Part shown: positions 16,847 to 33,170 of the stretch, piece by piece
How positions within the stretch are numbered: the stretch's first letter is position 1
Layout of the letters: every line of letters starts with the position of its first letter
Made by a program: the position numbers and the translations under genes
Assembly (NCBI GenBank): GCA_030041175.1
Contig: JASHOK010000055.1
Coordinates: 4,171-68,170, forward strand
Source: Thermoplasmata archaeon
GTDB taxonomy: Archaea > Thermoplasmatota > Thermoplasmata > Lutacidiplasmatales > UBA184
DNA: 64,000 nt
Direction: 5' to 3'
Notes under the pieces: model-generated
The model's database searches: none
Told to the model about the DNA's origin: nothing
Seen by the model: only the letters and a program-made list of their open reading frames with translations

Positions 16847-17912
16847 CCCCATCTTCCGCGAGGAATTGACCACCTTCCTCTCGGACCAGGGACACACCAC
16901 CTTCGAGGCGCCCTCGGTACGCCGGGCACTGGAGATCCTGGAGTCCGAGAGCGTAGATGTGCTCTTTTCGGACCTGAAGATGCCGCGGCAGAGCGGCCTG
17001 GACCTCCTCGGTGAAGTTCACCGACGGTGGCCGAGCATCTTCACCGTGATGGTCACCGGATTCGCCACAGTCCAGACCGCGGTCGAAGCGATGAAGGAGG
17101 GCGCCTTCGACTACATCGCCAAGCCGTTCCGAACGGCCCAGCTCGAGCAGGTCCTTCACCTCATCGAAGAACAGCGAGCCTTCCGCGACAGCCATCTGCC
17201 GACCGGGACCGCTGTCGAACTGGCCCGCGAGCTGGCGCGCCGAAACCATACGCGAATTCTGTACGCCGACGTGCCTCCGGCCCCGAAGGGAGAGGCCCTC
17301 GAGTTCCTGGCCTTCGACGGGCGTTCTCCCTCGGAGCTCCCCCATGCGCTAGAGACCTTTCTGCAGCAGAACCCGACGGGGGGCCTCGTCGTTGCGCAAG
17401 CCGACCGGATGGTGGCGGGTCACCGGCTCGAGGATATCGTCGCAGTCCTCGAGAACCTCCGCCAGCGCCTCGAGGGTAAGGGGCCGTTGGCGATCAGCAT
17501 CGATCCGACCCGGCTATCCAAAGGCCAGGCCGAGGCGCTCCGGACCGCGGTCACCGCCCCCGCGGTGCAGACGGCGCTGGAAGCGCTGTCGAGTCCGATT
17601 CGGCGACGGGTGCTCTTCCGGCTGACCAAGGGACCGGCCAGCTTCAGCGAGGCGATGCACGCGGCCGAGCTGGACGACTCCCCGAAGCTGGCCTTTCATC
17701 TACACCGGCTCGTCGACGAGGGGCTGATCGCCCACCTGGGAGAGCAGTACCGTCTCACACCCAAGGGCCAGAGCGCCGTGACCGTACTCCGAGAGATGGA
17801 GGACATTGCCGCCGGCAAGGGCTCGAAGACGGTCGTCTATCAGACCCCGCCGACGGCCGCGCCGGTAAGTGGGACCCCTGCTGCGGCCGCAGTTCGAAAG
17901 AAGCGGCGGTGA
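16821..17912 (+). CDS. response regulator: CheY-like receiver plus middle domain of unknown function plus C-terminal ArsR-like winged helix
   Basis: Receiver motifs MRILVVDDD...DVLFSDLKMP. C-terminal wHTH (IRRRVLFRLTKGPASFSE...HLHRLVDEGLI). Overlaps the HK by 26 nt. Confidence 0.75.
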   Translation: MRILVVDDDPIFREELTTFLSDQGHTTFEAPSVRRALEILESESVDVLFSDLKMPRQSGLDLLGEVHRRWPSIFTVMVTGFATVQTAVEAMKEGAFDYIAKPFRTAQLEQVLHLIEEQRAFRDSHLPTGTAVELARELARRNHTRILYADVPPAPKGEALEFLAFDGRSPSELPHALETFLQQNPTGGLVVAQADRMVAGHRLEDIVAVLENLRQRLEGKGPLAISIDPTRLSKGQAEALRTAVTAPAVQTALEALSSPIRRRVLFRLTKGPASFSEAMHAAELDDSPKLAFHLHRLVDEGLIAHLGEQYRLTPKGQSAVTVLREMEDIAAGKGSKTVVYQTPPTAAPVSGTPAAAAVRKKRR

Positions 17913-18799: not shown

Positions 18800-20443
18800 T
18801 CAGAGGAGGCCGATGACCCGACCCTCGGATGTGAGGTCAATCTGTTCGGACAGAGGCCGCCGGGGGAGCCCGGGCATGGTCTGAATCTCACCGAGATACG
18901 CCACGGTGAAGCCGGCCCCGGCCGACCGGGAGAACCGGCGAACGGTCGGGACAAACCCGGTCGGACGGCCGCGGACCGTCGGGTCGTCGGACAACGAGAG
19001 GGGCGTCTTCGCGACACAGACCGGGCCCTCGGCCTCCTGGATTCGCCGGAGCATCGCGAGAGTTTCCTGGGCCGCCGGGGCGATCGTCAGGCCCGCGCCA
19101 CCGTAAATCTGCCGAACGATCATCTCAACCGCAGCCTCGATGGAGGTCGTCGGAGGATAGAGCGCACGAGAGTGGCCTCCCCGTCCGCAGACCTCTACGA
19201 CCTTCGCGGCCACGTCCGACGCCCCCTTTGCCCCGTCCACGAACGCGGTGGACTCGGCGTAGGCCAGGTGCCGCTCCTCGCAGAACGCCTTCAGCAATCC
19301 GAGCTCCTCTGCGGTGTCGCCGGGGAATCGGTTCGCCACCACAACGGGCTCGATGCCTAGCGTCCGGAGATTGCCCACGTGCTGCTCGAGGTTGGGGAGG
19401 CCGCGGGACACCGCGGCCGGGTCCGGGAGCGAGTCCCGGTCATCGGGGACCCCGCCATGATACCGGAGTCCACGTAGAGTAGCGACGAGGACAGCGCCCG
19501 CAACGTCGAACCCGGCGAGCCGACCGACGATGTCCACGAACTTTTCCGCTCCGAGGTCCGTCGCAAATCCGGCCTCGACGACACAGTAGTCCGCCGTGGC
19601 TAGGCCTAGCTCAATCGAAAGACGGCTGCAAGTGCCGTGAGCAATGTTGGCGAAGGGTCCCCCGTGGATGAGCGCGGGTGTCCCATCTCCGGTCTGGAGC
19701 AGATTCGGTTCGAGCGCGAATCGGAGAAGGGCGGCGGCCGCCCCGGCAGCTTTGAGGTCCTCCACGCGCACAGGCTCTCCGGTCTTCCGGAATCCCAACA
19801 GAATGCGGCCGATCCGCGCCTTCAGGTCCGCGTAGTCCTGCGCGAGTCCCAGGACCGCTGTGATCTCCGAGGCGGCGGCGATGACGAAGCTCCCGGGTTG
19901 TGGCGGCTCGCGGGGCCCGCCCTGAGCGCTGGTGACGATCTGGCGCAGCGGGCGATCCTCGACGTCCAGCGTGCGGGGCCAGAGCCGAACGCTGCCGTCG
20001 ATGCCAAGGGGATTCCCTTGGAAGATGTGGTTGTCGAAAACGGCGGCGATCAGGTTGTGGGCGGCAGCAATCGCGTCCAGGTCGCCCGTCAATCCGAGGT
20101 TGATGGTCTCCGCGGGCTCGACGGTGGCCTGGCCCCCTCCCGCAGCGCCACCCTTGATTCCGAAGACCGGTCCCAGCGAGGGCTGCCGAAGGCAGACCAC
20201 TGCACGGTAGCCCGCCAGGCGGAGCGCCATCGCGACCGCGATCGAGGTCACGGTCTTGCCCTCGCCGTGCTTCGTCGGAGTCATCGCCGAAACCAGGACG
20301 ATCCTTCCGCGGCGTGAACCAGCCGCCAGAGACCGGACCAACCCGACCGGGACCTTCAGGGCCTCTCCACGGTACGGTCGGAGGTCCGACGGAGTGAGAC
20401 CAAGGTCCTGGGCCACGTCGTCGATAGGTCGCACCGTGCTCAC
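18800..20443 (-). CDS. fhs: formate--tetrahydrofolate ligase
   Basis: TPTKHGEGKTVTSIAV P-loop region and VEPAETINLGLTGDLDAIAAAHNL. Start proposed at the GTG (VSTVRPIDD). An in-frame ATG also exists at 20557. Confidence 0.85.
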   Translation of the reverse strand: MSTVRPIDDVAQDLGLTPSDLRPYRGEALKVPVGLVRSLAAGSRRGRIVLVSAMTPTKHGEGKTVTSIAVAMALRLAGYRAVVCLRQPSLGPVFGIKGGAAGGGQATVEPAETINLGLTGDLDAIAAAHNLIAAVFDNHIFQGNPLGIDGSVRLWPRTLDVEDRPLRQIVTSAQGGPREPPQPGSFVIAAASEITAVLGLAQDYADLKARIGRILLGFRKTGEPVRVEDLKAAGAAAALLRFALEPNLLQTGDGTPALIHGGPFANIAHGTCSRLSIELGLATADYCVVEAGFATDLGAEKFVDIVGRLAGFDVAGAVLVATLRGLRYHGGVPDDRDSLPDPAAVSRGLPNLEQHVGNLRTLGIEPVVVANRFPGDTAEELGLLKAFCEERHLAYAESTAFVDGAKGASDVAAKVVEVCGRGGHSRALYPPTTSIEAAVEMIVRQIYGGAGLTIAPAAQETLAMLRRIQEAEGPVCVAKTPLSLSDDPTVRGRPTGFVPTVRRFSRSAGAGFTVAYLGEIQTMPGLPRRPLSEQIDLTSEGRVIGLL

Positions 20444-20486
20444 GCCCCTCGGCGACCGCGCTTGGGAGTGCGTCGGTACAGAAGCG

Positions 20487-21032
20487 TCACCCCGACACAG
20501 CGTCGAGGATGGTGCGGGAAGCGGCGACCGCTTCGTCCTCCGTCCATGCCTGCACAATGAAGTACCAGCCGAGTACCAGGAGCAGCAGTAGGTTCGGGTC
20601 GCTGCGGCCCTCCGGACTGACGCTGACCAAGCCGCCCGCGAGCCGTGCCTCCTCTCGAACCGGCTCGAAGCTCGCGAGCTCCTTGCCAGCCGCGCTCTGA
20701 AACTCCCACGCCGGGATCCAGAAACCTGTACGGGCCCACCGGTACACCGTTCCGTCCGAAAGCTGAGCCAGGCTCTGGCTCACGTGCACATGGAGCTCGG
20801 CCACCGGCTTGCCCGAATCGGCGTCGTGGACGGCCACGATGGGCCGAACGAATCCATGCCGGCGGAGCGTCCACTTCACTCCCGCTCCCTCGGCGACCGC
20901 GAGTGACTCGACCGGCCGATCCCACCGCAAGGTCGCAATCGGATCCTTCCCAGACTCCAAGTGGTACGAGTGGGCCTCCGGCCCCCTTGTCCAGCGGAGC
21001 CCTTCCATCTCGGCGGCGGACAGCGGCTGCAT
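20487..21032 (-). CDS. hypothetical protein
   Basis: Codon-biased ORF upstream of fhs; start taken at MQPLSAAEM. No recognisable domain. Confidence 0.35.
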   Translation of the reverse strand: MQPLSAAEMEGLRWTRGPEAHSYHLESGKDPIATLRWDRPVESLAVAEGAGVKWTLRRHGFVRPIVAVHDADSGKPVAELHVHVSQSLAQLSDGTVYRWARTGFWIPAWEFQSAAGKELASFEPVREEARLAGGLVSVSPEGRSDPNLLLLLVLGWYFIVQAWTEDEAVAASRTILDAVSG

Positions 21033-21160: not shown

Positions 21161-21240
21161 AATAGACTCTGCATGTCAACACGTAGCAAATGGAGCCCAA
21201 TATATGCGTCTATATTCTATACTCATGTCCTACATATATT
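21161..21240 (+). promoter_or_regulatory. 80-bp AT-rich island with three TATA-like elements (aatatatg, tctatattc, tacatatatt), 23 nt upstream of the AbrB-PhoU regulator ATG
   Basis: A sharp drop in GC (to roughly 35%) inside an about 70% GC genome. Positioned for an archaeal TATA/BRE promoter of the pst locus regulator. Confidence 0.55.
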
Positions 21241-21262
21241 CCGGTTCCCTCGCTCCGGCGAG

Positions 21263-22513
21263 ATGGATGAACCAAGCAGCGCTCGGACTCGGTCGGCGAG
21301 TCCGTGGACCCCCTCCTCGCTCGTGGAGGAGGATGACAGAGCAAACCTCGCCCGAAGACTCCAACGGATGGGCACCGTGACGATCGGTGTTTCCCTGCCT
21401 CGAGAGTGGGTCGGTACCCGCAACCTCTCGGTCGGCAGCACGGTGTTCCTGCGCGCACTGGCCGATGGGTCCTTGCTCATTCAGGACCGGGACCCCTCCC
21501 TCGACCGGGCCTCTGTGGAGGTCCTCGTTCAGCCGGATCGTTCCCGGGAGCATACCTTCCGGGACCTCGTGGCGGCGTACCTTGCCGGCGCCCGGGAATT
21601 CGTGATCCGGGAGAAGGACGGCATTACCCCGGAGACCATGGCGGTCGCCAAGACCTTCGCACGGCGTACCCTCCAGCCCGAGATTGTCTCGGAGGACCGG
21701 GGGGTCCTCGTGCTGCGGGACGTTTCGCGGGGTGCTGAGCTCGACGTCGTGCCACTCCTCCGGCGGATGTTTCAGATCGTCCTGGGGCTGCAGCAGGAAG
21801 CCGCGCGCACCTGGTCCGAACCGGACCGGTGGCGAGGCACTCGGTGGGAGCAGCGGGACGACGAGGTCGACCGACACGCTTGGTTGATCGAGCGCATCCT
21901 GGCCCTCCGTCTCGCGGGTGCCGTTCCGGGAGCCGACGGAGGCTCCCCGACGGACCGCCCATTGCAGACTCTCATCCTGGTGCGGTCCCTCGAACGGATC
22001 GGCGACCACGCCGTCCAGATCGCCGACCAGGGCCTCCGGTGGGCTGAAACGTCCCCTCCCGACCGCGTAGTGCGCCCCGTCTCGGAGTTCCATGGCCAAG
22101 TGATGGACCAGCTCCGGGCGGCCTTCCGCGTGGCGTCTGAGGAACGAGACGCCCTCCACGCCAACGACGTGATCGATGTCGGGGAGGCGCTTCACGCCAC
22201 CTATACGACGCTGACCGAGGGCTTGTTCACTCGGAGCGCGGGGACCGGACTTTCGGCTCTTGCGGCCGTCCCCCTCGGGCTGATCCTCCAATCCATAGAC
22301 CGGACGGTGTCGTATGCCCAGGACATCGCCGAAGTCGGACTGGACCGGAGCACCGTCGTTTCCATCGAGGACGGCGCGGCTGCGGCGAATCCGTCCGCAA
22401 TTCCCCCCACCCCTCGGACGCCCCGAGGCACCCCTCGAGCACCGAGCCGGGTGGGCGGACCCCTTAACGCGCCACGGAATCGAAGGAGAAAACAGGAGAA
22501 GGAACCAGAATGA
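21263..22513 (+). CDS. phosphate uptake regulator (N-terminal AbrB/SpoVT swapped-hairpin domain fused to tandem PhoU domains)
   Basis: TVTIGVSLPREWVG AbrB-like N-terminus followed by PhoU-like helical repeats (ERIGDHAVQIADQ). Sits immediately upstream of pstS. Confidence 0.7.
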   Translation: MDEPSSARTRSASPWTPSSLVEEDDRANLARRLQRMGTVTIGVSLPREWVGTRNLSVGSTVFLRALADGSLLIQDRDPSLDRASVEVLVQPDRSREHTFRDLVAAYLAGAREFVIREKDGITPETMAVAKTFARRTLQPEIVSEDRGVLVLRDVSRGAELDVVPLLRRMFQIVLGLQQEAARTWSEPDRWRGTRWEQRDDEVDRHAWLIERILALRLAGAVPGADGGSPTDRPLQTLILVRSLERIGDHAVQIADQGLRWAETSPPDRVVRPVSEFHGQVMDQLRAAFRVASEERDALHANDVIDVGEALHATYTTLTEGLFTRSAGTGLSALAAVPLGLILQSIDRTVSYAQDIAEVGLDRSTVVSIEDGAAAANPSAIPPTPRTPRGTPRAPSRVGGPLNAPRNRRRKQEKEPE

Positions 22514-23706
22514 GCGCACCAAACCAACAGAGCGAGACGATTCAGAGCAAGGGGTCCAGCCGAACCGGCTGGTACGCCGCGGTTGCGGTGATCATCGTTG
22601 TGATCATCCTGTTCGCGGGACTGTACGCTGCCGGCTACATCGGCAAGAAGACCACGACCCCGTCGGGCCCTGGAGCGTGTACGAGTGTCACAATCCTGGG
22701 CGCGGGCTCGACCTTTGTGGAACAGCTACAGGACGAGTGGGCGTCGGTCTACAAGACCGGCTCCGTGGACTATGACGCGGTCGGCAGCGGTGCCGGTATC
22801 TCCGACATCACGGCCAAGACCGTGACCTATGGAGCGAGTGACGCACCGTTGAACACCACCCAAGCCGCCGCTGCGCCCGGGCTCCTAACGATGCCCGAGA
22901 CGGCGGGTGCAGTTGCGGTGATTTTCAACCTGCCGGGCGTTAGCTTCCCCCTCGGCTACTCCCTGAACGTCACCGGGCAGATCCTCGCGGCGATCTACCT
23001 CGGCACCATCTCAACGTGGAACAACTCGGCCCTGGTCGCGCTGAACCCGAAGCTCGCCGACGTCAACCAGACGATTGCGGTCTACCACCGGTCCGATGGA
23101 AGCGGAACGAGCTACGCCTTCACGCAGTTCCTCTCGGACAGCAACGCGACCTGGAAGAACACCATTGGCTACAGCACCCTTCCCAACTGGCCGGCCACCC
23201 CCTTGGGCGGCGGTGAAAAGGGTAGCTCGGGGATTGCGGGAACCGTCAAGATCACCCCGTACTCGCTTGGGTACGTCGATCTCGGCGAAGCCGCGTCCAA
23301 CGTCATCTCGTACGCCGCAGTGGAGAACCCCTCCGGAAAGTTCGTGATCCCGACGGTCAACGACACGGCCTCGGCCATCTCGGACATCCTGGCGACGGTA
23401 ACCCTCCCCGCGGGCAGTGCGAGCTGGGCGGACGTGTCGATGATCAACGCGCCGGGCGCCAAGGACTACCCGCTCGCGACGTTCTCGTACATGCTGTTCT
23501 ACCAGGCGGCCAACGACAACCCCGTGATCACCAGCTCATCCTACGCCTCGACGTTCGCGAACTGGTTGAACTGGACCGTCACCAAGGGTCAGTCCTACTC
23601 GGGCCAGCTGTACTACATCCCACTCCCCTCCTCCGTCGTGACGGCGGACCAGACGACCATCGCGTCGATGACCTACAACGGGGCCGCGATCGCGTCGTGC
23701 ACGTAG
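22510..23706 (+). CDS. pstS: phosphate ABC transporter substrate-binding protein PstS
   Basis: N-terminal membrane anchor. GAGSTFVEQL...AVGSGAGISD and DGSGTSYAFTQFL PstS motifs. Confidence 0.9.
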   Translation: MSAPNQQSETIQSKGSSRTGWYAAVAVIIVVIILFAGLYAAGYIGKKTTTPSGPGACTSVTILGAGSTFVEQLQDEWASVYKTGSVDYDAVGSGAGISDITAKTVTYGASDAPLNTTQAAAAPGLLTMPETAGAVAVIFNLPGVSFPLGYSLNVTGQILAAIYLGTISTWNNSALVALNPKLADVNQTIAVYHRSDGSGTSYAFTQFLSDSNATWKNTIGYSTLPNWPATPLGGGEKGSSGIAGTVKITPYSLGYVDLGEAASNVISYAAVENPSGKFVIPTVNDTASAISDILATVTLPAGSASWADVSMINAPGAKDYPLATFSYMLFYQAANDNPVITSSSYASTFANWLNWTVTKGQSYSGQLYYIPLPSSVVTADQTTIASMTYNGAAIASCT

Positions 23707-23752
23707 AGGCGAGTTCAGCTAGGTAGACACGCCAGGCCGGGATTCTGCGTCG

Positions 23753-24754
23753 ATGCTCCGAGGCGCGCGGACTCCCGGCCGAACCTTTTCCAGTCGGCTA
23801 CGACGGGCCCTCGACCTGGGCTTCATGGGCCTCACGCTCGCGGTGGCCGTCGGAATCCTCGCTCTGCTCACGGCGTTCGTCCTAGTGCTCATCCACGGAG
23901 CCCAGCTGTCCATCGCTCGATTCGGCATCTCCCTCCTGGGCAACCCGCACTGGAACCCGAGTGCGAATGTGCTGGGTCTTCTCCCCTTCATCATCGGAAC
24001 GCTCCTTACGTCGGCGATTGCACTCATCATCGCGGTGCCGCTCAGCATCGGCATCGCGGTGTTCCTGTCGGAGCTGACCCCCCGATGGATCTCGGAGCCG
24101 TTCGGATACCTGGTGGAGCTGCTCGCCGCGGTACCGTCCGTGATCTTCGGCGTCTGGGGGATCTTCATCCTGATCCCGTTCATGCGTACGACAATCGACC
24201 CTGCGCTCGAGAAGTGGAATCTCTCGTTCAACCGACTGCTCCACGTGAACGTTCCCGTCTTCACGGGCCCGATCCTCGGTTCGGGGGTGCTGACCGCCGG
24301 CGTGATCCTGGCGATCATGATCATTCCAACGATCTCGGCCATCAGCCGGGAGGCCCTCCGGGCCGTCCCGCAGCAGCAACGGGAGGCCGCGCTGGGCCTC
24401 GGGGCCACTCACTGGGAGAGTACGCGCATCTCGGTGCTGAGCTACGCGCGCATCGGCATCGTGGGCGCGGTCATCCTCGGATTGGGACGAGCGGTCGGAG
24501 AAACGATGGCCGTTACGATGGTCATCGGCAACTCGAACTTCATCCCGCGGAGCCTCTTCGACCAGGGGCAGACGATCGCGAGCCTCATCGCCAACGACTT
24601 CCTCTCGGAGTACAGCTCTCCGCTCGCCGCGAGCGCCTTCATCGAAGCCGCCCTCGTGCTTCTGGTGATCACACTCGCGATCAACGTCGGTGCCCGCATC
24701 CTGGTCTGGCGACTGGTGGCCCGGGGCGGCGGAGGAGGGGCGAATGAAATTTAA
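23753..24754 (+). CDS. pstC: phosphate ABC transporter permease PstC
   Basis: Multi-TM protein with an EAA-like loop (ISREALRAVPQQQREAALGLGAT). Confidence 0.85.
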   Translation: MLRGARTPGRTFSSRLRRALDLGFMGLTLAVAVGILALLTAFVLVLIHGAQLSIARFGISLLGNPHWNPSANVLGLLPFIIGTLLTSAIALIIAVPLSIGIAVFLSELTPRWISEPFGYLVELLAAVPSVIFGVWGIFILIPFMRTTIDPALEKWNLSFNRLLHVNVPVFTGPILGSGVLTAGVILAIMIIPTISAISREALRAVPQQQREAALGLGATHWESTRISVLSYARIGIVGAVILGLGRAVGETMAVTMVIGNSNFIPRSLFDQGQTIASLIANDFLSEYSSPLAASAFIEAALVLLVITLAINVGARILVWRLVARGGGGGANEI

Positions 24755-25607
24755 CCGGGATGGCCGCCGTCGGATCTTCAACTGGGTCGTGAGCGGACTC
24801 TGCTTCCTCTGTGTCGTTGCTGCGCTGATCCCGCTCCTGAGCATCATTTACACGGCCGTGATCAACGGAGGCCGCGTCCTGAGTTTCAACTTCCTGGTCG
24901 CACCCCTCTCGTTCGGGTTCTGCACACCGGGTGTCAGTTGCTACGGAGGCATCGGGCCGGCGCTAGCAGCGACCCTGATCGTCGTGGGCATCGCGTCCGG
25001 TATTTCCGTTCCGACGGGCGTTCTGGCGGGAATCTACCTCTCAGAGTATGGGAAGAACCGGCTCGGGCGATCCATCAGTTTCTTCACCGACGTGATGACC
25101 GGCTCGCCGTCGATCGTGGTCGGGCTGTTCGTCTACGCGGCCTTCGTCTACTTCGAACCCCGACTGGCCTTCAGTGCCCTATCGGGCTCCGTGGCGCTCG
25201 CGGTGATCATGATCCCCATCGTGACGCGGACGACCGAGGAGGGGCTCCGTCTAGTCCCGAACGCGCTTCGGGAAGGCGCCTACGCACTCGGAATCCCCCG
25301 ATACCGGGCCGTGGTGCAGATCGTGCTCAGTACCGGCCGGAGCGTCGTGATCACCGGGGTGGTGCTCGCGGTGATGCGGGCGGCGGGCGAGGTAGCGCCG
25401 CTCCTGCTCACGGCCTTCTGGAACAACAATGGGTTCACCGGCATCAACCAGCCGGCCGGTCTCCTCGGGCCGCTCATCTACATGGACGCGGAGAGCCCGT
25501 CGCCCTATCTCGTCGCCGCGGCGTGGGGCGCCTCGCTCATTCTGATCCTGCTCATGCTCGGAATCAGCCTGGCCGCCCGGATCGCGTTGCGCAAACGTTT
25601 CACGTAG
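24744..25607 (+). CDS. pstA: phosphate ABC transporter permease PstA
   Basis: Multi-TM protein with a permease loop (TTEEGLRLVPNALREGAYALG). Start taken at MKFNR, overlapping pstC by 11 nt. Confidence 0.8.
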   Translation: MKFNRDGRRRIFNWVVSGLCFLCVVAALIPLLSIIYTAVINGGRVLSFNFLVAPLSFGFCTPGVSCYGGIGPALAATLIVVGIASGISVPTGVLAGIYLSEYGKNRLGRSISFFTDVMTGSPSIVVGLFVYAAFVYFEPRLAFSALSGSVALAVIMIPIVTRTTEEGLRLVPNALREGAYALGIPRYRAVVQIVLSTGRSVVITGVVLAVMRAAGEVAPLLLTAFWNNNGFTGINQPAGLLGPLIYMDAESPSPYLVAAAWGASLILILLMLGISLAARIALRKRFT

Positions 25608-25625
25608 CCAAGGAGAGCGAACGAC

Positions 25626-26426
25626 GTGCAGGGAGAGGCGTTTGGCAAGTCCACTCAACTGAATCACGATGCGTCGCCGGCGAAGATGTCGGTGGCCGGC
25701 CTCTCCGCCTACTACGGGAAGAAGAAGGCCATCTCCAACGTTTCTCTCGATTTCCGGCAGAACAGCGTGACGGCCATCATCGGTCCGTCGGGTTGCGGGA
25801 AGTCCACCCTGATCCGGTGCCTCAACCGGATGCACGAGGTCACGCCGGGTGGCTGGGTGGAGGGGAAGGTCCTCTTGGACGGGGAGGATATCCTCGACCA
25901 GGACCCGGTGTCGGTCCGCCGTCGGATCGGGATGGTCTTCCAGAAGCCGAACCCGTTCCCCACAATGTCGGTCTATGACAACGTCGCGGCGGGGCTCCGG
26001 CTCAACGGGGTCCGCAAACGCGAGATCCTCGACGCGGCCGTGTTGCGGAGCCTGAAGCAGGCGGCGCTCTGGGACGAGGTCAAGGAGAACGTGCACGGCT
26101 CCGGGAACCGGCTCTCGGGCGGACAACAGCAGCGGCTGTGCATCGCCCGAGCACTGGCCATCGAGCCCGAGGTTATCCTGATGGACGAGCCGTGTTCCGC
26201 CCTCGACCCGATCGCGACCGCGAAGATCGAGGACCTGATCTTCGACCTCCAAAAGACCTACACCGTCGTGATCGTGACCCACAACATGCAGCAGGCGGCG
26301 CGGGTGGCGGAGTATACCGCGTTCATGTACCTGGGCGAACTCATCGAGTTCGACCGAACGAAGAAGATCTTCGAGCAGCCGGCGCAGAAACTGACCGAGA
26401 ATTACATCACCGGGAGGTTTGGATAA
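25626..26426 (+). CDS. pstB: phosphate ABC transporter ATP-binding protein PstB
   Basis: Walker [10 protein letters not shown], signature LSGGQQQRL, Walker [12 protein letters not shown]. Confidence 0.9.
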
Positions 26427-27157
26427 TGCCCACGGCCGTCGAGCGAAAGGCGCTCTCCGAGGCGCTCGAACACCTCAATGAGAACATGCGCACCATGTCG
26501 GAGCTCGCCGTCCTGGCGATCCGAAAGGCCGTCGAGGCGCTGGAGAAGGGCCGCAGCCATGACGCCGACGAAGTCTTCACCCTCGACCAGGAGATCTACG
26601 GTCTCAAGCAGAAGATCGAGCACTCCTGCATTGAGCTCATCGCCCTGTACGCTCCCGTGGCGAGCGACCTCCGGACGATCACCGCCTCCCTCGAGATCAC
26701 CACGGACCTGGACCGCATCGGGCGCTACTCCAAGGACATCGCCGAAGCGGCGGAGAAGCTCCGGGGGATGAGCCGGGAGAGCCTCGGGAAGGTGGGAAAC
26801 CTGACCCGGATGGCCGACCTCACGATCCAGATGATCGAGACGTCGGTCAACGCCTTCGCGCAGCGCCAGGCGGAGCCGGTCCGGGACATCGTCCGCACCG
26901 ACGACGCGATCGATGCCCTGCACGACGAGGTCTTTCAGGAACTCGTCGAGAAGATGACCGACCAGTCGGTTTCGCCGCGAGTCGGCGCCCAGTACATCCT
27001 CATCAACCGCTATTTCGAGCGGCTCGCCGACCACGCGGTCAACATCGGTCTGGACGTGATCTACATGATCACCGCCGAGCGGCCCATCAAAACGAAGCGG
27101 CGGGACGCGACTCCCCGGGGCACCGAGCCCGCTGCGTCGTCCACCGGAACCAGCTAG
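26426..27157 (+). CDS. phoU: phosphate signalling complex protein PhoU
   Basis: Two PhoU repeats (DLDRIGRYSKDIAE, NRYFERLADHAVNI). ATG overlaps the pstB stop (TAATG). Confidence 0.85.
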   Translation: MPTAVERKALSEALEHLNENMRTMSELAVLAIRKAVEALEKGRSHDADEVFTLDQEIYGLKQKIEHSCIELIALYAPVASDLRTITASLEITTDLDRIGRYSKDIAEAAEKLRGMSRESLGKVGNLTRMADLTIQMIETSVNAFAQRQAEPVRDIVRTDDAIDALHDEVFQELVEKMTDQSVSPRVGAQYILINRYFERLADHAVNIGLDVIYMITAERPIKTKRRDATPRGTEPAASSTGTS

Positions 27158-27178
27158 GGCCGTCGGAACGGAAGCTCC

Positions 27179-28690
27179 ATGGGCCGACCCGGTGCCCCGC
27201 TCGTACCGCGGTCCCTGCGGCGGGCACTGACTGAAACCGGGCCGATCGGCTCCACCACGCATCAGCTCTCGGTCCGCCTCGAGACGCCGGAATCCGAATT
27301 GGACGCCCTCCTGGAGCGTCTGGCCCTCCACGGGGACGTCGTCCGGATCGGCCGGGGGCTCTGGCTCCTCGCAGCCTACGCGGAGCTCGACCGGCGGGAG
27401 GATTTCCATGCTCCCGAAGAGTATGTCGAACGCTTCGCACACGAGAACGGAGTGGTCCTCGGCCGGTACGAGGGGCCGATCACCTTCTCCGACAACACGG
27501 TAGCCCCAGTCCATCGGTGGTGGCCCTATGTGCAGGGTTTTTCCGCCGACTTCGTGGCCGGCGTCCTCCAGGACGAAGGGCTGAGTCCCGGCTCGACCGT
27601 GCTGGACCCATTCGCCGGCAGTGGAACCACCCTCGTCGAGGCGCGGAGAGCGGGTCATCGTCCCTGGGGGACGGAGCTGCTGCCACCGGCGGCGCTGGCC
27701 GCCCGGGTGAAGACGCGTTTCGAGCTGCCGAGTGCCCGGCTGCTCTCCCAAGCCCGGACGGTCCTCCGAACTGCCGCCCGTCGGACGCCGTCTTCGGTGC
27801 CCTTCCTACGGGAGACCTCTCGGCAGTTTCTGGCCGCCACCCTCCGTGACCTGACGCGGCTGCGGGACGCGCTCCCGGGCGCCACCGACCCGATGAGCGA
27901 AGCGCTGCGTGTGGCGTTCGGCCGCATACTGATTCCCGTGAGTCGGCTCCGTCGGTCCCCGTGCTTGGGCTACGGTCGGCCGGACGCGGACCAGCCGCGG
28001 GATCCGTTCACCGAGTTCCGGAACGCGGTTGACGAAATGGCTCAGGACCTGGACTTCCTGACGCAATCCCGTTCGCGCTGGGGCCCGGCCGGCCACGTCT
28101 GGCAGCGCGACGCTCGGAACCTGGATCTACCCCCCAGCTCGGTCGACCTCGCGGTGACCAGCCCGCCCTACGTCAACGGCATGGACTACGTGAACAACTA
28201 CAAGCTCGACCTCGCCTGGCTCGGGTACGCGAAGGGGTATGCCGACCTGCGGCGACTTCGCGAAGCCCTGGTGGCCTGCGACAATCTCGGCCGCGCGGCG
28301 GTCCGGCCCCATCTGGGCACGGACGATGTGCCGGACCGGTGGCTCCGGGAGATTCTCCGGCAAATCCGGAGCAACGTGGACCAGAAACGAAGTTATCGTA
28401 GAGACGACGCCCACGGAGTGGTCAAGCGATACTTCTTGGACCTCCGGCCGGTGCTTGCCGCCGTGTACCGTGCACTCCGGCCCGGGGGCCGCTTCCGATT
28501 GGTCGTGGGCGACTCGCTCCTCGCGGGCACCTACGTTCCCGGCGACCTGTTGACGGCTCGACTGGGCGCCGACGTCGGGTTTCACATCACCGCCGTCGAC
28601 ATCGCTCGGCGCCGGTGGTCCGGACAACGGCGCGATTTCCCGCTTCGAGAGACGGTCGTCACTCTGCAACGTCCGGTGGGAGACTCGTAG
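27179..28690 (+). CDS. site-specific DNA methyltransferase (N6-adenine/N4-cytosine class) with an N-terminal winged-helix region
   Basis: SAM motif I VLDPFAGSGTT preceded by a HRWWPY...FSADFV block, and catalytic motif IV SPPY (in LAVTSPPYVNGMDY) about 185 aa downstream. The order I then IV with an intervening TRD-sized region indicates an alpha-class enzyme. Confidence 0.7.
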   Translation: MGRPGAPLVPRSLRRALTETGPIGSTTHQLSVRLETPESELDALLERLALHGDVVRIGRGLWLLAAYAELDRREDFHAPEEYVERFAHENGVVLGRYEGPITFSDNTVAPVHRWWPYVQGFSADFVAGVLQDEGLSPGSTVLDPFAGSGTTLVEARRAGHRPWGTELLPPAALAARVKTRFELPSARLLSQARTVLRTAARRTPSSVPFLRETSRQFLAATLRDLTRLRDALPGATDPMSEALRVAFGRILIPVSRLRRSPCLGYGRPDADQPRDPFTEFRNAVDEMAQDLDFLTQSRSRWGPAGHVWQRDARNLDLPPSSVDLAVTSPPYVNGMDYVNNYKLDLAWLGYAKGYADLRRLREALVACDNLGRAAVRPHLGTDDVPDRWLREILRQIRSNVDQKRSYRRDDAHGVVKRYFLDLRPVLAAVYRALRPGGRFRLVVGDSLLAGTYVPGDLLTARLGADVGFHITAVDIARRRWSGQRRDFPLRETVVTLQRPVGDS

Positions 28691-28704
28691 CGCCGGAGGG
28701 ATGG

Positions 28705-29583
28705 ATGCCGCGGTCCAAGCCCAGCGCTCGGGAGGCCACGTTCCTTCGGGCCGAGATCGCCCGCTCCGCGCGACGGGCCGAGGCGGGGCTTCGGGCCGCG
28801 GCCTATCGGGAGATGCCCGATCCCGAGACCCTGCATCGTCTGCATCGGGACCTCCGCGAACTTCGCGTTACGCACCGTCTGCTCCTACCCGTACCGAAGG
28901 CCGGAACCCCGGAGGACGCGATCGACCGTCGCCTGCGAAAATTGGCCGGCCTGGTCGGAGAGGTCCGGGACCGCGATGTGGCCATCGACCTCCTCCTGCG
29001 CGCGGGCCGCGACGCGGACCCGAAGCTTCGGCAGAATCTTCGGACACAGCTCCGGCACGAGGGCGAGGTGGGGCGGCAGCTCCTCCGAGCGGCGGCTCGT
29101 GCCGAAATAGACCGTCGCTTGCTCCAGACGGTCATCCGAGACGTGGCTGGGGCCTCGGTGCCTGGTCCCGCTCGGCTCCGCCGGGAGCTGCAGTCTGCGC
29201 TGGCCCAGCACCATCAGACGGTCGTCCGCGCGTTCCGTCGTGGCCTCAAGAAGCCCTCGACCCGTCGGCTGCATCGGCTCCGGATCGCTCTCCGCAACGC
29301 CCGGGCGCTGCGGGTCCTGGTCGGTCGCGCAACGGGGCACCCGGCCGAGTCCGTACCGGCCGAGCTCGAGAAGCTCCAGCGGACCCTCGGTCGCCTGCAC
29401 GACCTCGACATGGTCACCGAGCGGATCACGGGCCTTCCGTCCGGGGAGAATCTCGACCGCTGGGAGCGTCAATGGCGTCGGGCCCGCAAATCGGAGCGGA
29501 TCCAGGTCCTGGCGCGCATGCAACGGAAGCGGACCCGGAAGTCGCTTTCCTGGCTAGCCCTAGGACCTGCCGAGGACCAATGA
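28705..29583 (+). CDS. CHAD-domain protein
   Basis: All-alpha protein with the Arg/His-rich helical repeats characteristic of the CHAD (conserved histidine alpha-helical) domain; located next to ppx. Confidence 0.55.
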   Translation: MPRSKPSAREATFLRAEIARSARRAEAGLRAAAYREMPDPETLHRLHRDLRELRVTHRLLLPVPKAGTPEDAIDRRLRKLAGLVGEVRDRDVAIDLLLRAGRDADPKLRQNLRTQLRHEGEVGRQLLRAAARAEIDRRLLQTVIRDVAGASVPGPARLRRELQSALAQHHQTVVRAFRRGLKKPSTRRLHRLRIALRNARALRVLVGRATGHPAESVPAELEKLQRTLGRLHDLDMVTERITGLPSGENLDRWERQWRRARKSERIQVLARMQRKRTRKSLSWLALGPAEDQ

Positions 29584-29629
29584 CTGAATCTCTGCGTGAC
29601 CCGACGGGGAGTTCATAGGCCGGGGGGAC

Positions 29630-31201
29630 TTGCGCGTGACACCACTGACGATGTCGGCGAGTTCCCCTGTCCTCCTGACCGAGATCCGGCCCGGAGAGGC
29701 GAGCCAGCTGGCCGTCATCGACCTGGGCTCGAACACGGCACGGCTGGCAATCTTCGAGGTCACGGGCGAGGGCGGGCTGCGGACCGTCTATGAGGTGAAG
29801 GAGGTTCCACGGCTCGGGAAGGGTGTCCGTGACGACCTCTCCCTCTCGCCCGGAGCCATCGAGCGCGGGCTGGCCACCCTAACCCGATTTTCCCGACACC
29901 TCACGGTCATGGGGAATCCTCCCACCATCGCCGTCGCGACGAGTGCGGTACGCGACGCGCCGAACGGGCGAGCGTTCATCGAGCGGATCGCCCGGAGGAC
30001 CGGCATCCTGATGCGCGTGATCTCCGGCGAGGAGGAAGCTCGCCTGGGCTATCTGGGCGTGGCGTCGGCCTGGGAGCTCGACCGGGACGTGATCGCGGAC
30101 CTGGGCGGCGGCTCGCTCCAGCTTGCGTCGACCCGCAGCGGTCAGCTCGAGCGGTCGAGCAGCCTCCCCCTGGGCGCGCTCCGAATGACGCAGGACTTCC
30201 TGCGGCACGACCCTCCCAAGCGCAAGGAGCTGGAGGCAGCACGGGACCACATCCGGAAGGAGCTCGCCGCGACGCCGCTGCCCCGTCCTTCGGAGCGGCT
30301 GCGGATCTTCGGCGTCGGAGGAACGATCCGGTGCCTCGCCCGGGTGGCGATGGAGCTTCGGGAGTACCCGGTCCAGCGGGTCCATGGCTACCGGCTCAAC
30401 CGGAGGGATCTGGATGTTCTGGAGGGCATCTTGCTCGAAATGACGGCTCCGCAACGGCGGGAGGTACCCGGCATCAGCGCCGCGCGCGCGGATGTCATCG
30501 TGGCGGGGTTACTGGTCGTCGACGAGCTCCTACGTCGGACCGACCGGGATGAGCTCTGGGTGACCGGGCACGGAATCCGCGAGGGTGCGGTCATCGAGCG
30601 ACTCGCGATTCCGGTGCCGGCGTCGCAGGAGGTCCTGGCCTTCCGTTCCGTGACCGCCGCGGCTCGAGCGATGGGATTCTCCCTGATCCACGGCGAGCAG
30701 GTCCGCCGGCTGGCCCTCACACTCTTCGACCGGCTCCAGACCCGCTTCGGGTGGACGGCCAACGACCGGCTGGTCCTCTCGGTCGCGGCCTGGATGCACG
30801 ACGTGGGCGCCGTGGTGGACCCCTGGCATCACCCGCAGCACTCCGCCTACCTGATCCGGAACCTGGCCAGCCTTTCGCTCACCGACCGGGACGCGGTTCT
30901 GGCGTCCCTGGTGGCGTACCTTCATGAGGGGGATGAGATGCCCGAGGGCTGGGCCAAGACGTGGCGCGCCATCCTCACCCCGGACGACCTGCAGGTCGCT
31001 CGACAGCTCGGCACGATCGTTTACTTTGCCGAGACCCTCGAGGGCGCGCGCCTCACGGTGACCCTCCCGCGCGGATCTCAACGCCTGCGTATCGAGCCGT
31101 ACCGGAACGGCGGAGCCTCGGTGCCGCCCCGCGCCGTCGAGCGCCTGCGAAAGCCGATCGAGCGGGTCTTCGAACTGGAGCTGGTGGCCCCGGATGAGTG
31201 A
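29630..31201 (+). CDS. ppx: Ppx/GppA-family exopolyphosphatase / guanosine pentaphosphate phosphohydrolase with a C-terminal HD-like domain
   Basis: AVIDLGSNTARLAI and DLGGGS actin-like ATPase-fold motifs. C-terminal HD-related region (AAWMHDVG). Confidence 0.8.
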   Translation: MRVTPLTMSASSPVLLTEIRPGEASQLAVIDLGSNTARLAIFEVTGEGGLRTVYEVKEVPRLGKGVRDDLSLSPGAIERGLATLTRFSRHLTVMGNPPTIAVATSAVRDAPNGRAFIERIARRTGILMRVISGEEEARLGYLGVASAWELDRDVIADLGGGSLQLASTRSGQLERSSSLPLGALRMTQDFLRHDPPKRKELEAARDHIRKELAATPLPRPSERLRIFGVGGTIRCLARVAMELREYPVQRVHGYRLNRRDLDVLEGILLEMTAPQRREVPGISAARADVIVAGLLVVDELLRRTDRDELWVTGHGIREGAVIERLAIPVPASQEVLAFRSVTAAARAMGFSLIHGEQVRRLALTLFDRLQTRFGWTANDRLVLSVAAWMHDVGAVVDPWHHPQHSAYLIRNLASLSLTDRDAVLASLVAYLHEGDEMPEGWAKTWRAILTPDDLQVARQLGTIVYFAETLEGARLTVTLPRGSQRLRIEPYRNGGASVPPRAVERLRKPIERVFELELVAPDE

Positions 31202-31904
31202 GCGGCCGATGGCACCCCCGGCTCCGGGCAACAACGGCGGAACGGGCCGACTGCTCGTCGTCGAGGGCCTCGATGGCAGCGGGAAATCGACCCAGGCCCG
31301 ACTGCTGGTGAAGTGGCTCCAGTCGCGCGGGTATCGCGTTTTCTTCACGGAATGGAATTCGTCGGAGCTGGTCTCGGGCGTCATTCGTCGCGGAAAGAAG
31401 AAGGGACTGTTGACGCCGACGACCTTCGCACTCCTTCACGCTACGGACTTTGCGGACCGGCTCGAGCGGCAGATTCTCCCGCCGCTGCGCGCCGGGTACT
31501 TCGTGGTCTGCGACCGCTACTGCTACACCGCCTTCGCGCGGGATACCGCACGCGGCTGCGACCCGGCCTGGGTTCGGAACATGTACTCGTTCGCGCCCGT
31601 ACCGGACAAGGTGCTCTACTTCCGTGTCCCGGTCCAGGTCTCCCTGGACCGGAAGCTCGCGTCGCGGGAACCGATCTCGTACTACGAAGCCGGGATGGAC
31701 CTGCATCTCGCCGACGATGTCGTGGAGAGTTACCAGCGATTCCAGGCGGCCCTCCGGCGCGGCTACGAGAAGCTCGTGACGACCGACCACCTTGTCCCGA
31801 TCGACGCGGCGAAGCCGGTGGAGCAGGTGCTCACCCGGGTCCGCTCCGAGGTCAAGCCGCTGCTGAACGAATTCCCCAAGATGGAGACGCTGGTCCATGG
31901 TTAG
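31194..31904 (+). CDS. tmk: thymidylate kinase-like P-loop kinase (paralog 1)
   Basis: LLVVEGLDGSGKST P-loop and a DRYCYT DRY/H motif. Confidence 0.7.
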   Translation: MSERPMAPPAPGNNGGTGRLLVVEGLDGSGKSTQARLLVKWLQSRGYRVFFTEWNSSELVSGVIRRGKKKGLLTPTTFALLHATDFADRLERQILPPLRAGYFVVCDRYCYTAFARDTARGCDPAWVRNMYSFAPVPDKVLYFRVPVQVSLDRKLASREPISYYEAGMDLHLADDVVESYQRFQAALRRGYEKLVTTDHLVPIDAAKPVEQVLTRVRSEVKPLLNEFPKMETLVHG

Positions 31905-32673
31905 GACGTACGGGACGCGCATCCCCAATCTGCCGAAGAAGGAGCTTCCCGGCCACCTCATCGTGGTCGAAGGCGCGGACGGGTCCGGGCGGACGACCGA
32001 GGTCGAGATGCTCCGCGACTGGCTCGAGATCCAGGGACACCCGGTCGTGGACACGGGTCTCCGCCGCTCCACCCTCGTCAGCAAGCAGATCGACCGGGCG
32101 AAGCTCGGTCATACACTCGGCGCGACCACGATGGCGCTGTTCTACGCCGCCGACTTCGCCGACCAGCTGGAGAACAAGATCCTTCCGGCGCTCTCGGCCG
32201 GGAGCACCGTCCTCGCCGACCGGTACACGTACACCCTGATGGCCCGGGCGATTGTCCGCGGCGCTACCCGGGAGTACGCGGAAAAGCTGTATGCGTTCGC
32301 CTTCGAGCCGGACCTCATTATCTTCCTCGATGCGCGTACCGACATCCTCCTCCACCGGGCGATCGCGAAGTACGGGTCGCTCGACTACTGGGAGAGCGGG
32401 ATGGACCTCTCGCTCTCCCGCGACCGCTTCGAGAGTTTCTTCGCGTATCAGGGGCTGCTCAAGAAGGAGTTCGACTGGATGGCGCGAACGTACGGGTTCC
32501 AGCGCGTGGACGCGAACCGGACCCCGTTCCAGGTCCACCGCGACGTGAAGGCGGTCGTGGCGGCGCTCTTCGGCAAGAAGGTCCGCATCGAGGTAGGGGT
32601 CGAGGGGAGCCCGAAGGTCGCTACCGTGCCCGAGGTGTCGGGTCTCGGCCCCACGGAAGGACAGAACGCCTAA
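31897..32673 (+). CDS. thymidylate kinase-like P-loop kinase (paralog 2), with Arg replacing the P-loop Lys
   Basis: HLIVVEGADGSGRTT and ADRYTYT. Shares the unusual YWESGMDLSL block with paralog 1 (YYEAGMDLHL). 8-nt overlap with paralog 1. Confidence 0.6.
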   Translation: MVRTYGTRIPNLPKKELPGHLIVVEGADGSGRTTEVEMLRDWLEIQGHPVVDTGLRRSTLVSKQIDRAKLGHTLGATTMALFYAADFADQLENKILPALSAGSTVLADRYTYTLMARAIVRGATREYAEKLYAFAFEPDLIIFLDARTDILLHRAIAKYGSLDYWESGMDLSLSRDRFESFFAYQGLLKKEFDWMARTYGFQRVDANRTPFQVHRDVKAVVAALFGKKVRIEVGVEGSPKVATVPEVSGLGPTEGQNA

Positions 32674-33170
32674 CCCAACCGCTCGAGCTGCTTCCTCGTC
32701 AGGATCCAGTCGATCTCGGCGGCGCCCGCCCGGGCCTCGCGGGAGAAGTTGAGCTGGGCGACCCCGGCCTTGGCGAAGCGGGTGATCGGGACGGAATCGC
32801 CGGTGACCGCGAGACCGAGAAGCTCCCCGAGAGTGGGCTCATGACCGACCAGCGCGATTCCCCGGCGGCGGGAGTACCGCTGCACGCGCTCGAGAATCGG
32901 TCCGGGCGACGTGTCCGGCTCGAGCTCGTCCCAGAGTTCGAGCTCGGCCTCGACCTCGAGGACCTCTCGAAAGATCTCGGCGGTCGCCCGGGCGCGGACG
33001 GCCGGACTCGCCACGACCTTATCGACGGCAGGACGCAACTTCGCCAGCCCCTTCGCGGCGCGACGCGTCGACCGAACTCCGTCGGGCGTCAGTGGCCGTG
33101 TGCGATCATCCGGCCACCGGGACGGGTCGCGGTCGGCCGCCGGCCCGTGCCGGATCAGGAGCAGGTCCAT
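32670..33170 (-). CDS. histidine-phosphatase superfamily protein (SixA / phosphoglycerate-mutase-like)
   Basis: LLLIRHG catalytic RHG motif near the N-terminus and a downstream GHEP His motif. Start taken at MDLLLIRHG. Confidence 0.65.
   Translation of the reverse strand: MDLLLIRHGPAADRDPSRWPDDRTRPLTPDGVRSTRRAAKGLAKLRPAVDKVVASPAVRARATAEIFREVLEVEAELELWDELEPDTSPGPILERVQRYSRRRGIALVGHEPTLGELLGLAVTGDSVPITRFAKAGVAQLNFSREARAGAAEIDWILTRKQLERLG

Follow-up and report, generated by a model that had tools for sequence, protein, structure and literature searches.

A predicted PPK3-type polyphosphate kinase gene pair beside phosphate-uptake genes in a Thermoplasmata archaeon

Introduction

The polyphosphate (polyP) kinase PPK3 of Sulfolobus acidocaldarius is a heteromeric enzyme derived from thymidylate kinase (Tmk) (Hofmann et al., J Biol Chem 2026, PMC12995831; bioRxiv 2024.08.28.610084). 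Here we describe two adjacent Tmk-like genes and their neighbours in a 64,000-nt stretch of DNA from a Thermoplasmata archaeon (assembly GCA_030041175.1, contig JASHOK010000055.1, positions 4,171 to 68,170), which was analysed as a whole and is called the window below. The genes, Tmk-like 1 (31194-31904, of the catalytic cPPK3 or c type) and Tmk-like 2 (31897-32673, of the regulatory rPPK3 or r type), very probably belong to a polyP module of the PPK3 kind that lies next to a block of genes for the uptake of inorganic phosphate (Pi).

In S. acidocaldarius, the catalytic subunit Saci_2019 (cPPK3) is reported to make polyP from ATP and to be activated by Saci_2020 (rPPK3), which is inactive alone, with trace ADP formation only; dTMP phosphorylation was found for Saci_0893 only and for neither Saci_2019 nor Saci_2020 (PMC12995831). 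The complex (SaPPK3) is described as an α2β2 heteromer that preferentially forms ATP from polyP, makes polyP only when ATP/ADP is high and is under strong control by the ATP/ADP ratio; it prefers ADP/ATP, has some activity with GDP and does not use GTP as a donor (PMC12995831). Its authors state that the arginine of the DRX motif is replaced in rPPK3s, explain the inactivity of Saci_2020 by this replacement and liken the c/r pairing to the two-domain class II PPK2 (PMC12995831). The S. acidocaldarius operon is given as SixA-ppx-c-r-CHAD, the neighbours reported for the family are PPX, SixA, CHAD, PstC and PstS, the neighbourhood is likened to that of PPK1, and the distribution of PPK3 is called patchy and transfer-prone (PMC12995831). 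The S. acidocaldarius locus in our collection (L081) has the gene order SixA-like, ppx, c, r, that is, ppx>c>r as in the window.

The S. tokodaii protein ST1543 (STK_15430), a homologue of cPPK3, was first published as an unusual Tmk, and its structures were deposited in the PDB as dTMP kinase. Thermoplasmata are not mentioned in the main text of the PPK3 paper (PMC12995831), and a literature search for PPK3 in Thermoplasmata found no report. Other papers that speak of 'PPK3' were set aside, as they deal with a different enzyme, a PPK2-class biocatalysis enzyme sharing the nickname. Since the PPK3 family has already been published (2024/2026), the present finding confirms and extends known work: the enzyme family is known, and what is new here is its Thermoplasmata member and the signature of the partner subunit.

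Placement of the two Tmk-like proteins

By sequence, Tmk-like 1 groups with the catalytic PPK3 subunit, apart from canonical dTMP kinases. It matches STK_15430 (PDB 2plr/5h70) with E = 8.7e-55 and 189 bits, and canonical Tmk structures at about 1e-14 and 56 bits at best; its identity to Saci_2019 is 47%. Profile hidden Markov models were made for the c and r types from sequences that included none of Thermoplasmata or Sulfolobus; they score it at 314 bits (c) and 232 bits (r), and the canonical Tmk profile scores it at 98 bits. Tmk-like 1 carries the Walker A motif GSGKST, DRY, RRGKKK, the arginines R116, R120, R153 and R158 and the lid block YYEAGMD, and every column that is invariant in a 15-sequence alignment of c-type proteins is present in it.

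The second protein is 38% identical to the first, in line with the mutual similarity recorded in a preliminary description of this DNA. Tmk-like 2 matches 2plr at 8e-34 and canonical Tmks at about 1e-11 (48 bits). It scores 122 bits against Saci_2019 and 99 bits against Saci_2020 and, because its identity to both is 32-33%, pairwise BLAST does not decide its orthology; the independent c and r profiles do separate it (r 301, c 204, canonical 84 bits) and resolve it as r type. An AlphaFold2 model of Tmk-like 2 (mean pLDDT 75), the only one of the two proteins that was modelled, retrieved with Foldseek eight ST1543 chains first (TM 0.86-0.90) and then canonical Tmks, with no PPK2 fold in the top 50 matches. 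Likewise, the PPK2 family model gave no Pfam hit at E ≤ 0.01 for either protein. In Tmk-like 2 the Walker A lysine is changed to arginine (GSGRTT), ADRYTYT keeps the DRY motif, and the basic residues of the lid are missing; its score on the dTMP-kinase equivalog TIGR00041 is 73.4 bits, below the cut-off of 83.25. Its best 120 homologues are 66-88% identical to it, and the named ones all come from metagenome-assembled genomes (MAGs) labelled 'Thermoplasmata archaeon'. By analogy with Sulfolobus, Tmk-like 2 is most likely a non-catalytic helper subunit and not, as had been supposed, a second kinase: it classifies as the regulatory type and has lost the Walker A lysine.

In a neighbour-joining tree (164 sequences, 100 bootstraps, rooted with four bacterial canonical Tmks), the c and r types together are separated from the canonical Tmks in 100/100 bootstraps, so that the pair falls outside the canonical clade in the comparison with bona fide Tmks that the preliminary description had proposed. 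The c clade, which holds Tmk-like 1, Saci_2019 and STK_15430, has a support of 95-98/100. On the same profiles, Saci_2020 scores 98 (c), 138 (r) and 53.9 bits (canonical), the second genes of S. tokodaii and M. sedula are of the r type, and Tmk of Escherichia coli scores about 48 bits with either PPK3 profile.

The positions of the dTMP site (53-56, 86 and 116 in Tmk-like 1 numbering) differ in both types from the Tmks of E. coli and Thermus thermophilus: TRxPGG is replaced by TEWNSS (c) or TGLRRS (r), the Arg after A-[AD] by Phe, and the Gln of Y-Q-G by Arg. Both types also share an 11-residue insertion with E-[AS]-G-x-D in the lid region, where E. coli Tmk has a gap. This is the atypical lid block to which attention had been drawn, and the motifs on which that observation was based (GSGRTT, YYEAGMDLHL and YWESGMDLSL) are all present in the translations. 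The earlier proposal of a distinct P-loop kinase subfamily that works with polyP and not with dTMP agrees, by sequence, profile, tree, fold and synteny, with the characterized PPK3.

It is very unlikely that the pair are genuine thymidylate kinases that merely adjoin ppx. PF02223 matches both proteins, Tmk-like 1 passes TIGR00041 with 101 bits, the public names of c- and r-type proteins are all 'dTMP kinase' or 'thymidylate kinase', and the published history of ST1543 points the same way; however, Saci_2019 and Saci_2020 make no dTDP (PMC12995831), the residues of the dTMP site are replaced in both proteins, score, tree and profile all set the two apart from canonical Tmks, and the pairing and the polyP neighbourhood are conserved in 77 of 80 related loci (see below). 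No third Tmk-like ORF (open reading frame) was found within the 64-kb window. The public names look like a systematic misannotation of PPK3 subunits as dTMP kinase, and this mislabel will propagate because TIGR00041 passes the catalytic subunit.

Distribution and the Walker A arginine of the second subunit

Related loci were collected with one genome per GTDB species, and the best 80, none of them from Sulfolobaceae, were compared; Sulfolobaceae reference operons were obtained separately by a homologue search with the PDB sequence. The best 80 loci span more than 15 phyla and include 8 from Nitrososphaerales and other Thermoproteota, 2 from Thermoplasmata, 1 from Methanoliparum and 69 from bacteria (Acidobacteriota, Verrucomicrobiota, Planctomycetota, Nitrospirota, Chloroflexota and others). 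Two Tmk-like genes, one c and one r, are found in 77 of the 80, in tandem in 73. Judging from these loci, the PPK3 gene pair is much more widely distributed among lineages than one would expect from the abstract of the founding paper. In one thermoproteotal locus (L004:3500-4240), the 1.7 kb downstream of the c gene contain no r gene.

All 83 c-type genes examined combine the Walker A lysine with DR. Of the 77 second-position (r-type) genes, 75 have arginine in place of this lysine, across more than 15 phyla; what had been taken for a local peculiarity of GSGRTT is family-wide. DR is kept in 76 of the 77; R116, R120 and R153 are kept as well, whereas the lid residues R158 and K162 are absent from the r type. 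Among 25 Thermoplasmata r sequences, R32 and D108-R109-Y110 are invariant. Across the survey, the r subunit is therefore marked by the Walker A Lys-to-Arg change together with the loss of lid R158 and K162.

Loss of the DRX arginine was seen only in the r genes of S. acidocaldarius, S. tokodaii and M. sedula (L081:5621-6253, L085:3626-4243 and L086:3624-4256), where DGY replaces DRY in all three. As 76 of the 77 second-position genes keep DR, this loss is a trait of the three Sulfolobaceae examined and does not define the family. Saci_2020 is atypical in its P-loop as well, since it keeps the lysine (SSGKTT) while the r genes of S. tokodaii and M. sedula have arginine (GSGRTA and GSGRTY). That the hallmark of the helper is the Walker A change and not DRX loss bears on the study of the regulatory mechanism and on the choice of a representative organism. 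In a locus from Gastranaerophilales (L017:6941-8313), the second gene still has GSGKST and diverges at the base of the c clade; it is possibly a recent duplicate.

These motif states bear on a variant within PPK3, which we regard as tentative: the r subunit could be a ligand-binding pseudo-kinase that binds ATP/ADP or the polyP end without turnover and sets the ATP/ADP dependence of the enzyme, or it could have some residual activity of its own. Walker A Lys-to-Arg mutants of P-loop ATPases, such as RecA K72R, often bind nucleotide without turnover. The presence of this arginine in nearly all r genes of so many phyla indicates a fixed substitution, not random decay, and because DRY is kept next to a fixed arginine, and not next to a decayed P-loop, Tmk-like 2 may still bind nucleotide or polyP; the conserved DR, R116, R120 and R153, and the invariant residues of the Thermoplasmata r sequences, also speak for it, as does the strong ATP/ADP control of SaPPK3 (PMC12995831). 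On the other hand, Saci_2020 had no activity beyond trace ADP formation (PMC12995831), the conservation would be explained equally well by the structure of the subunit interface, and a natural c-r fusion (P0121) has the P-loop GSDYSGHYQRS, in which the position in question is occupied by neither Lys nor Arg. It is conceivable, at the same modest level of belief, that the Sulfolobus r subunit is atypical and doubly degenerate and that elsewhere (Thermoplasmata, Nitrososphaerales and more than 15 bacterial phyla) a pseudo-kinase with fixed arginine and DRY is a candidate energy-charge sensor; if so, PPK3 would be a widespread environmental polyP kinase and not a niche crenarchaeal one. For Tmk-like 2 we retain the assignment as a probable non-catalytic helper.

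Gene neighbourhood

Genes were called from ORFs together with Pfam/NCBIfam matches. The region 21173-32673 holds twelve co-directional genes, plus one convergent gene, in a window with a G+C content of ~67%. The features are as follows.

21195-21245, no strand: AT-rich patch, candidate archaeal promoter (read from the sequence; predicted function)
21263-22513, plus strand: PhoU-domain protein resembling a transcription regulator, with a weak AbrB/SpoVT-like N-terminus (PhoU, E = 1.5e-14)
22510-23706, plus strand: PstS, phosphate-binding protein (PBP_like_2, E = 1.6e-29); in the same position in the related locus L083
23753-24754, plus strand: PstC permease (BPD_transp_1, E = 4.6e-13)
24744-25607, plus strand: PstA permease, ORF opening at 24690 (BPD_transp_1, E = 3.8e-16)
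25626-26426, plus strand: PstB ATPase (ABC_tran, E = 5.8e-35)
26426-27157, plus strand: PhoU with two PhoU repeats (PhoU, E = 1.7e-39, two stretches)
27179-28690, plus strand: 503-aa methyltransferase-like protein with an N-terminal winged helix (N6_N4_Mtase, E = 7.8e-11)
28705-29583, plus strand: CHAD-domain protein, of a family associated with polyP granules (CHAD, E = 1.7e-24)
29651-31201, plus strand: Ppx/GppA exopolyphosphatase (Ppx-GppA, E = 6.9e-57, plus domain III)
31194-31904, plus strand: cPPK3-type subunit, predicted catalytic polyphosphate kinase (PF02223, E = 1e-27)
31897-32673, plus strand: rPPK3-type subunit, predicted non-catalytic helper (PF02223, E = 2e-18)
32670-33170, minus strand: SixA-like histidine phosphatase, convergent (TIGR00249, 81.9 bits, cut-off 74.5)

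Every gene named in the preliminary description lies at the coordinates given there, although the methyltransferase gene between phoU and the CHAD gene had been overlooked. Both 8-nt overlaps that it reported are present, the one between ppx and Tmk-like 1 reading ATGAGTGA and the one between Tmk-like 1 and Tmk-like 2 reading ATGGTTAG; the 3' ends of the SixA-like gene and Tmk-like 2 overlap by 4 nt. The Ppx/GppA protein scores 282 bits on TIGR03706, under the cut-off of 307, and no solved structure was matched by the sequence of the CHAD protein. Genes located upstream of these encode a fusion of a response-regulator receiver with a winged-helix domain (DUF7347/HTH_20; 16821-17912) and a formate-tetrahydrofolate ligase, the latter on the minus strand (18800-20557).

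Among the best 80 loci, ppx is a neighbour of the Tmk-like genes in 48, SixA in 28 and PstB in 16. In a related Thermoplasmata MAG (L083), the gene order is identical to that of the window from the regulator through carAB. With this order recurring in L083 and the c and r pair in 77 of the 80 loci, the association of the genes in the window is not due to chance. Natural fusions of c and r (P0121) and of c, r and Ppx domain III (P0122, P0125 and P0137) support a physical and functional link between these components.

The fusion proteins with a cPPK3-like part (P0121, P0122, P0125, P0137, P0185, P0190, P0191, P0198 and P0207) are diverse. The c-r fusion has 460 aa and those of c and r with Ppx/GppA domain III/HD have 650-696 aa; others join an MFS transporter, a Tmk-like domain and DUF2252/APH (about 1000-1240 aa), or are giant polyvalent proteins of 1610-2575 aa that contain InPase and ADP-ribosyltransferase domains.

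The regulator at the start of the phosphate-uptake block is encoded by an ORF at 21173-22513, with a likely ATG start at 21263, so that the first 30 codons of this ORF are probably non-coding. It had been described as an AbrB-PhoU regulator. Its PhoU domain is clear by the E-value given above, whereas the AbrB part corresponds to a MazE/AbrB-like match at the N-terminus that is below the Pfam cut-off (E = 0.0057); in a PDB search, the regulator gave weak matches to PhoU and its N-terminus no support for AbrB. The AT-rich patch before the gene, within which positions 21199-21216 form a perfect inverted repeat of 6 bp (AATATA-N6-TATATT), may serve as a TATA/BRE region or as an operator. Homologues of the regulator accompany the PPK3 block in other archaeal loci (L019:8975-10030, L084:11320-12369, L015:11226-11990 and L064:13076-13530). 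In two of these, L019 and L084 from Thermoplasmata, the homologue adjoins SixA and no pst operon is adjacent. Where pst is absent, the PhoU-domain regulator thus stays with the polyP block. It may control the polyP genes directly.

The methyltransferase has motif I (FAGSGTT) before motif IV (SPPY), the reverse of the order in the beta-class enzyme TTHA0409, which it matches in permuted form (PDB 2zie). It is conserved at 60-80% identity and a length of about 503 aa in more than 120 Thermoplasmata clusters, which is unusually high for a DNA methyltransferase, and has a fixed position in the lineage beside HAD, Pyr_redox_2 and carAB genes. In the window, L083, L019 and L084 it adjoins the CHAD gene; in L084 and L019, a CHAD-ppx-c-r-SixA-regulator block without pst lies on the other side of it. 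Three further Thermoplasmata contigs (L087-L089) have the methyltransferase gene together with a 95-aa ORF, HAD, Pyr_redox_2 and carAB, and no CHAD, ppx, Tmk-like or SixA gene around it. We considered the methyltransferase as a part of the polyP system and rejected this because L087-L089 carry it and its backbone neighbours without polyP genes; it is probably not part of that system. The methyltransferase and HAD genes belong to the backbone of the lineage, next to which the polyP module has been inserted as an accessory element; such an insertion accounts for the adjacency of the methyltransferase and CHAD genes and fits the patchy, transfer-prone distribution described for PPK3 (PMC12995831). 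Because this backbone gene (27179-28690) stands between them, the pst/phoU block and the polyP block do not make up the one continuous, complete island that had been proposed.

Predicted function of the locus

Taken together, we consider it very likely that 28705-33170 is a PPK3-type polyP module (CHAD, PPX, cPPK3, rPPK3 and the SixA-like protein) beside a Pi-uptake block. In such a module, cPPK3 would catalyse the reversible reaction ATP + polyP(n) = ADP + polyP(n+1), and rPPK3, a catalytically weak or dead paralogue, would bind cPPK3 (as α2β2 in Sulfolobus) and raise its activity; PPX would release Pi from polyP, and the CHAD protein would mark or associate with polyP granules. Pst/PhoU and the PhoU-domain regulator would couple the module to the supply of phosphate. 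The cell would thus take up Pi and bank polyP at high ATP/ADP and, when energy or phosphate is short, recover ATP through PPK3 and Pi through PPX.

Several points weigh against this assignment. The r clade has weak support in the tree (64/100 without Saci_2020), and the placement of Saci_2020, which has a long branch, is ambiguous (inside the r clade in 52 replicates and basal in 44); the outgroup was limited to four bacterial Tmks and the neighbour-joining method is simple. The dTMP-kinase equivalog accepts Tmk-like 1, as noted above. Tmk-like 2 keeps the DRX arginine, the loss of which was the published explanation for the inactivity of Saci_2020, so that its predicted inactivity has to be read from two features only, the Walker A Lys-to-Arg change and the missing basic residues of the lid. 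Lid position 162 is Ser in Tmk-like 1, and the Thermoplasmata c subunits (window, L019 and L040) have Ser or Asn there, in the context SREPISYYEAG in place of the usual GRPKLKYYEAG; they lack the lysine found in 95% of c-type genes. Finally, the gene content, overlaps, family placement, motif states and conserved pairing and neighbourhood are features of the window and its relatives, whereas the reaction catalysed, heteromer formation, the lack of activity in the second subunit and the direction in which the enzyme works in the cell are inferred from the Sulfolobus enzyme.

The lid difference would also suit a polyP-dependent kinase with another acceptor (NMPs, GDP or another phosphorylated metabolite), like class II/III PPK2. 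The second-substrate site differs from that of Tmk, and SaPPK3 has some activity with GDP (PMC12995831), but Tmk-like 1 is 47% identical to Saci_2019 and lacks none of the family-invariant residues, the synteny is the same, and SaPPK3 prefers ADP/ATP and does not take GTP as donor (PMC12995831); we consider such an acceptor improbable. With the PPK3 assignment, the likely polyphosphate kinase has been identified for a large group of uncultured Thermoplasmata.

Comparison with known systems

The closest described system is SaPPK3. Like it, the window has tandem Tmk paralogues directly after ppx (ppx>c>r), SixA and CHAD in the same cluster, and a c subunit, 47% identical to its counterpart, with intact Walker A, DRY and lid. 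Unlike it, the window comes from Thermoplasmata, the SixA-like gene is convergent (SixA leads the operon in Sulfolobus), CHAD is upstream, and the module adjoins pstSCAB-phoU; the r subunits are only 32% identical, with DRY and a Walker A arginine in the window and DGY and lysine in Saci_2020. ST1543 (PDB 2plr, 4nzy, 4rzx and 5h70) is the best solved-structure match of both window proteins, although its lid reads KPQEAGADIFP where Tmk-like 1 has YYEAGMDLHL, and its partner r gene differs from Tmk-like 2 in combining the Walker A arginine with DGY.

Canonical Tmk (EC 2.7.4.9) shares with the pair the P-loop kinase fold, Walker A, the DRX motif and the lid architecture, but the two proteins score 84-98 bits on the canonical profile and 301-314 bits on the PPK3 profiles. 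Class II PPK2 (P. aeruginosa PPK2C) resembles the predicted arrangement in having an active P-loop unit and an inactive paralogous unit that aids oligomerization; it belongs to another P-loop family, and its N-terminal domain, which is inactive, and its active C-terminal domain are fused, whereas the units in the window are separate genes. In the bacterial ppk1-ppx/Pho regulon, as in the window, a polyP kinase gene stands beside ppx and is tied to pstSCAB-phoU; the kinase in the window is unrelated to PPK1, and in place of PhoBR the window has a PhoU-domain (AbrB-like) protein as its candidate regulator.

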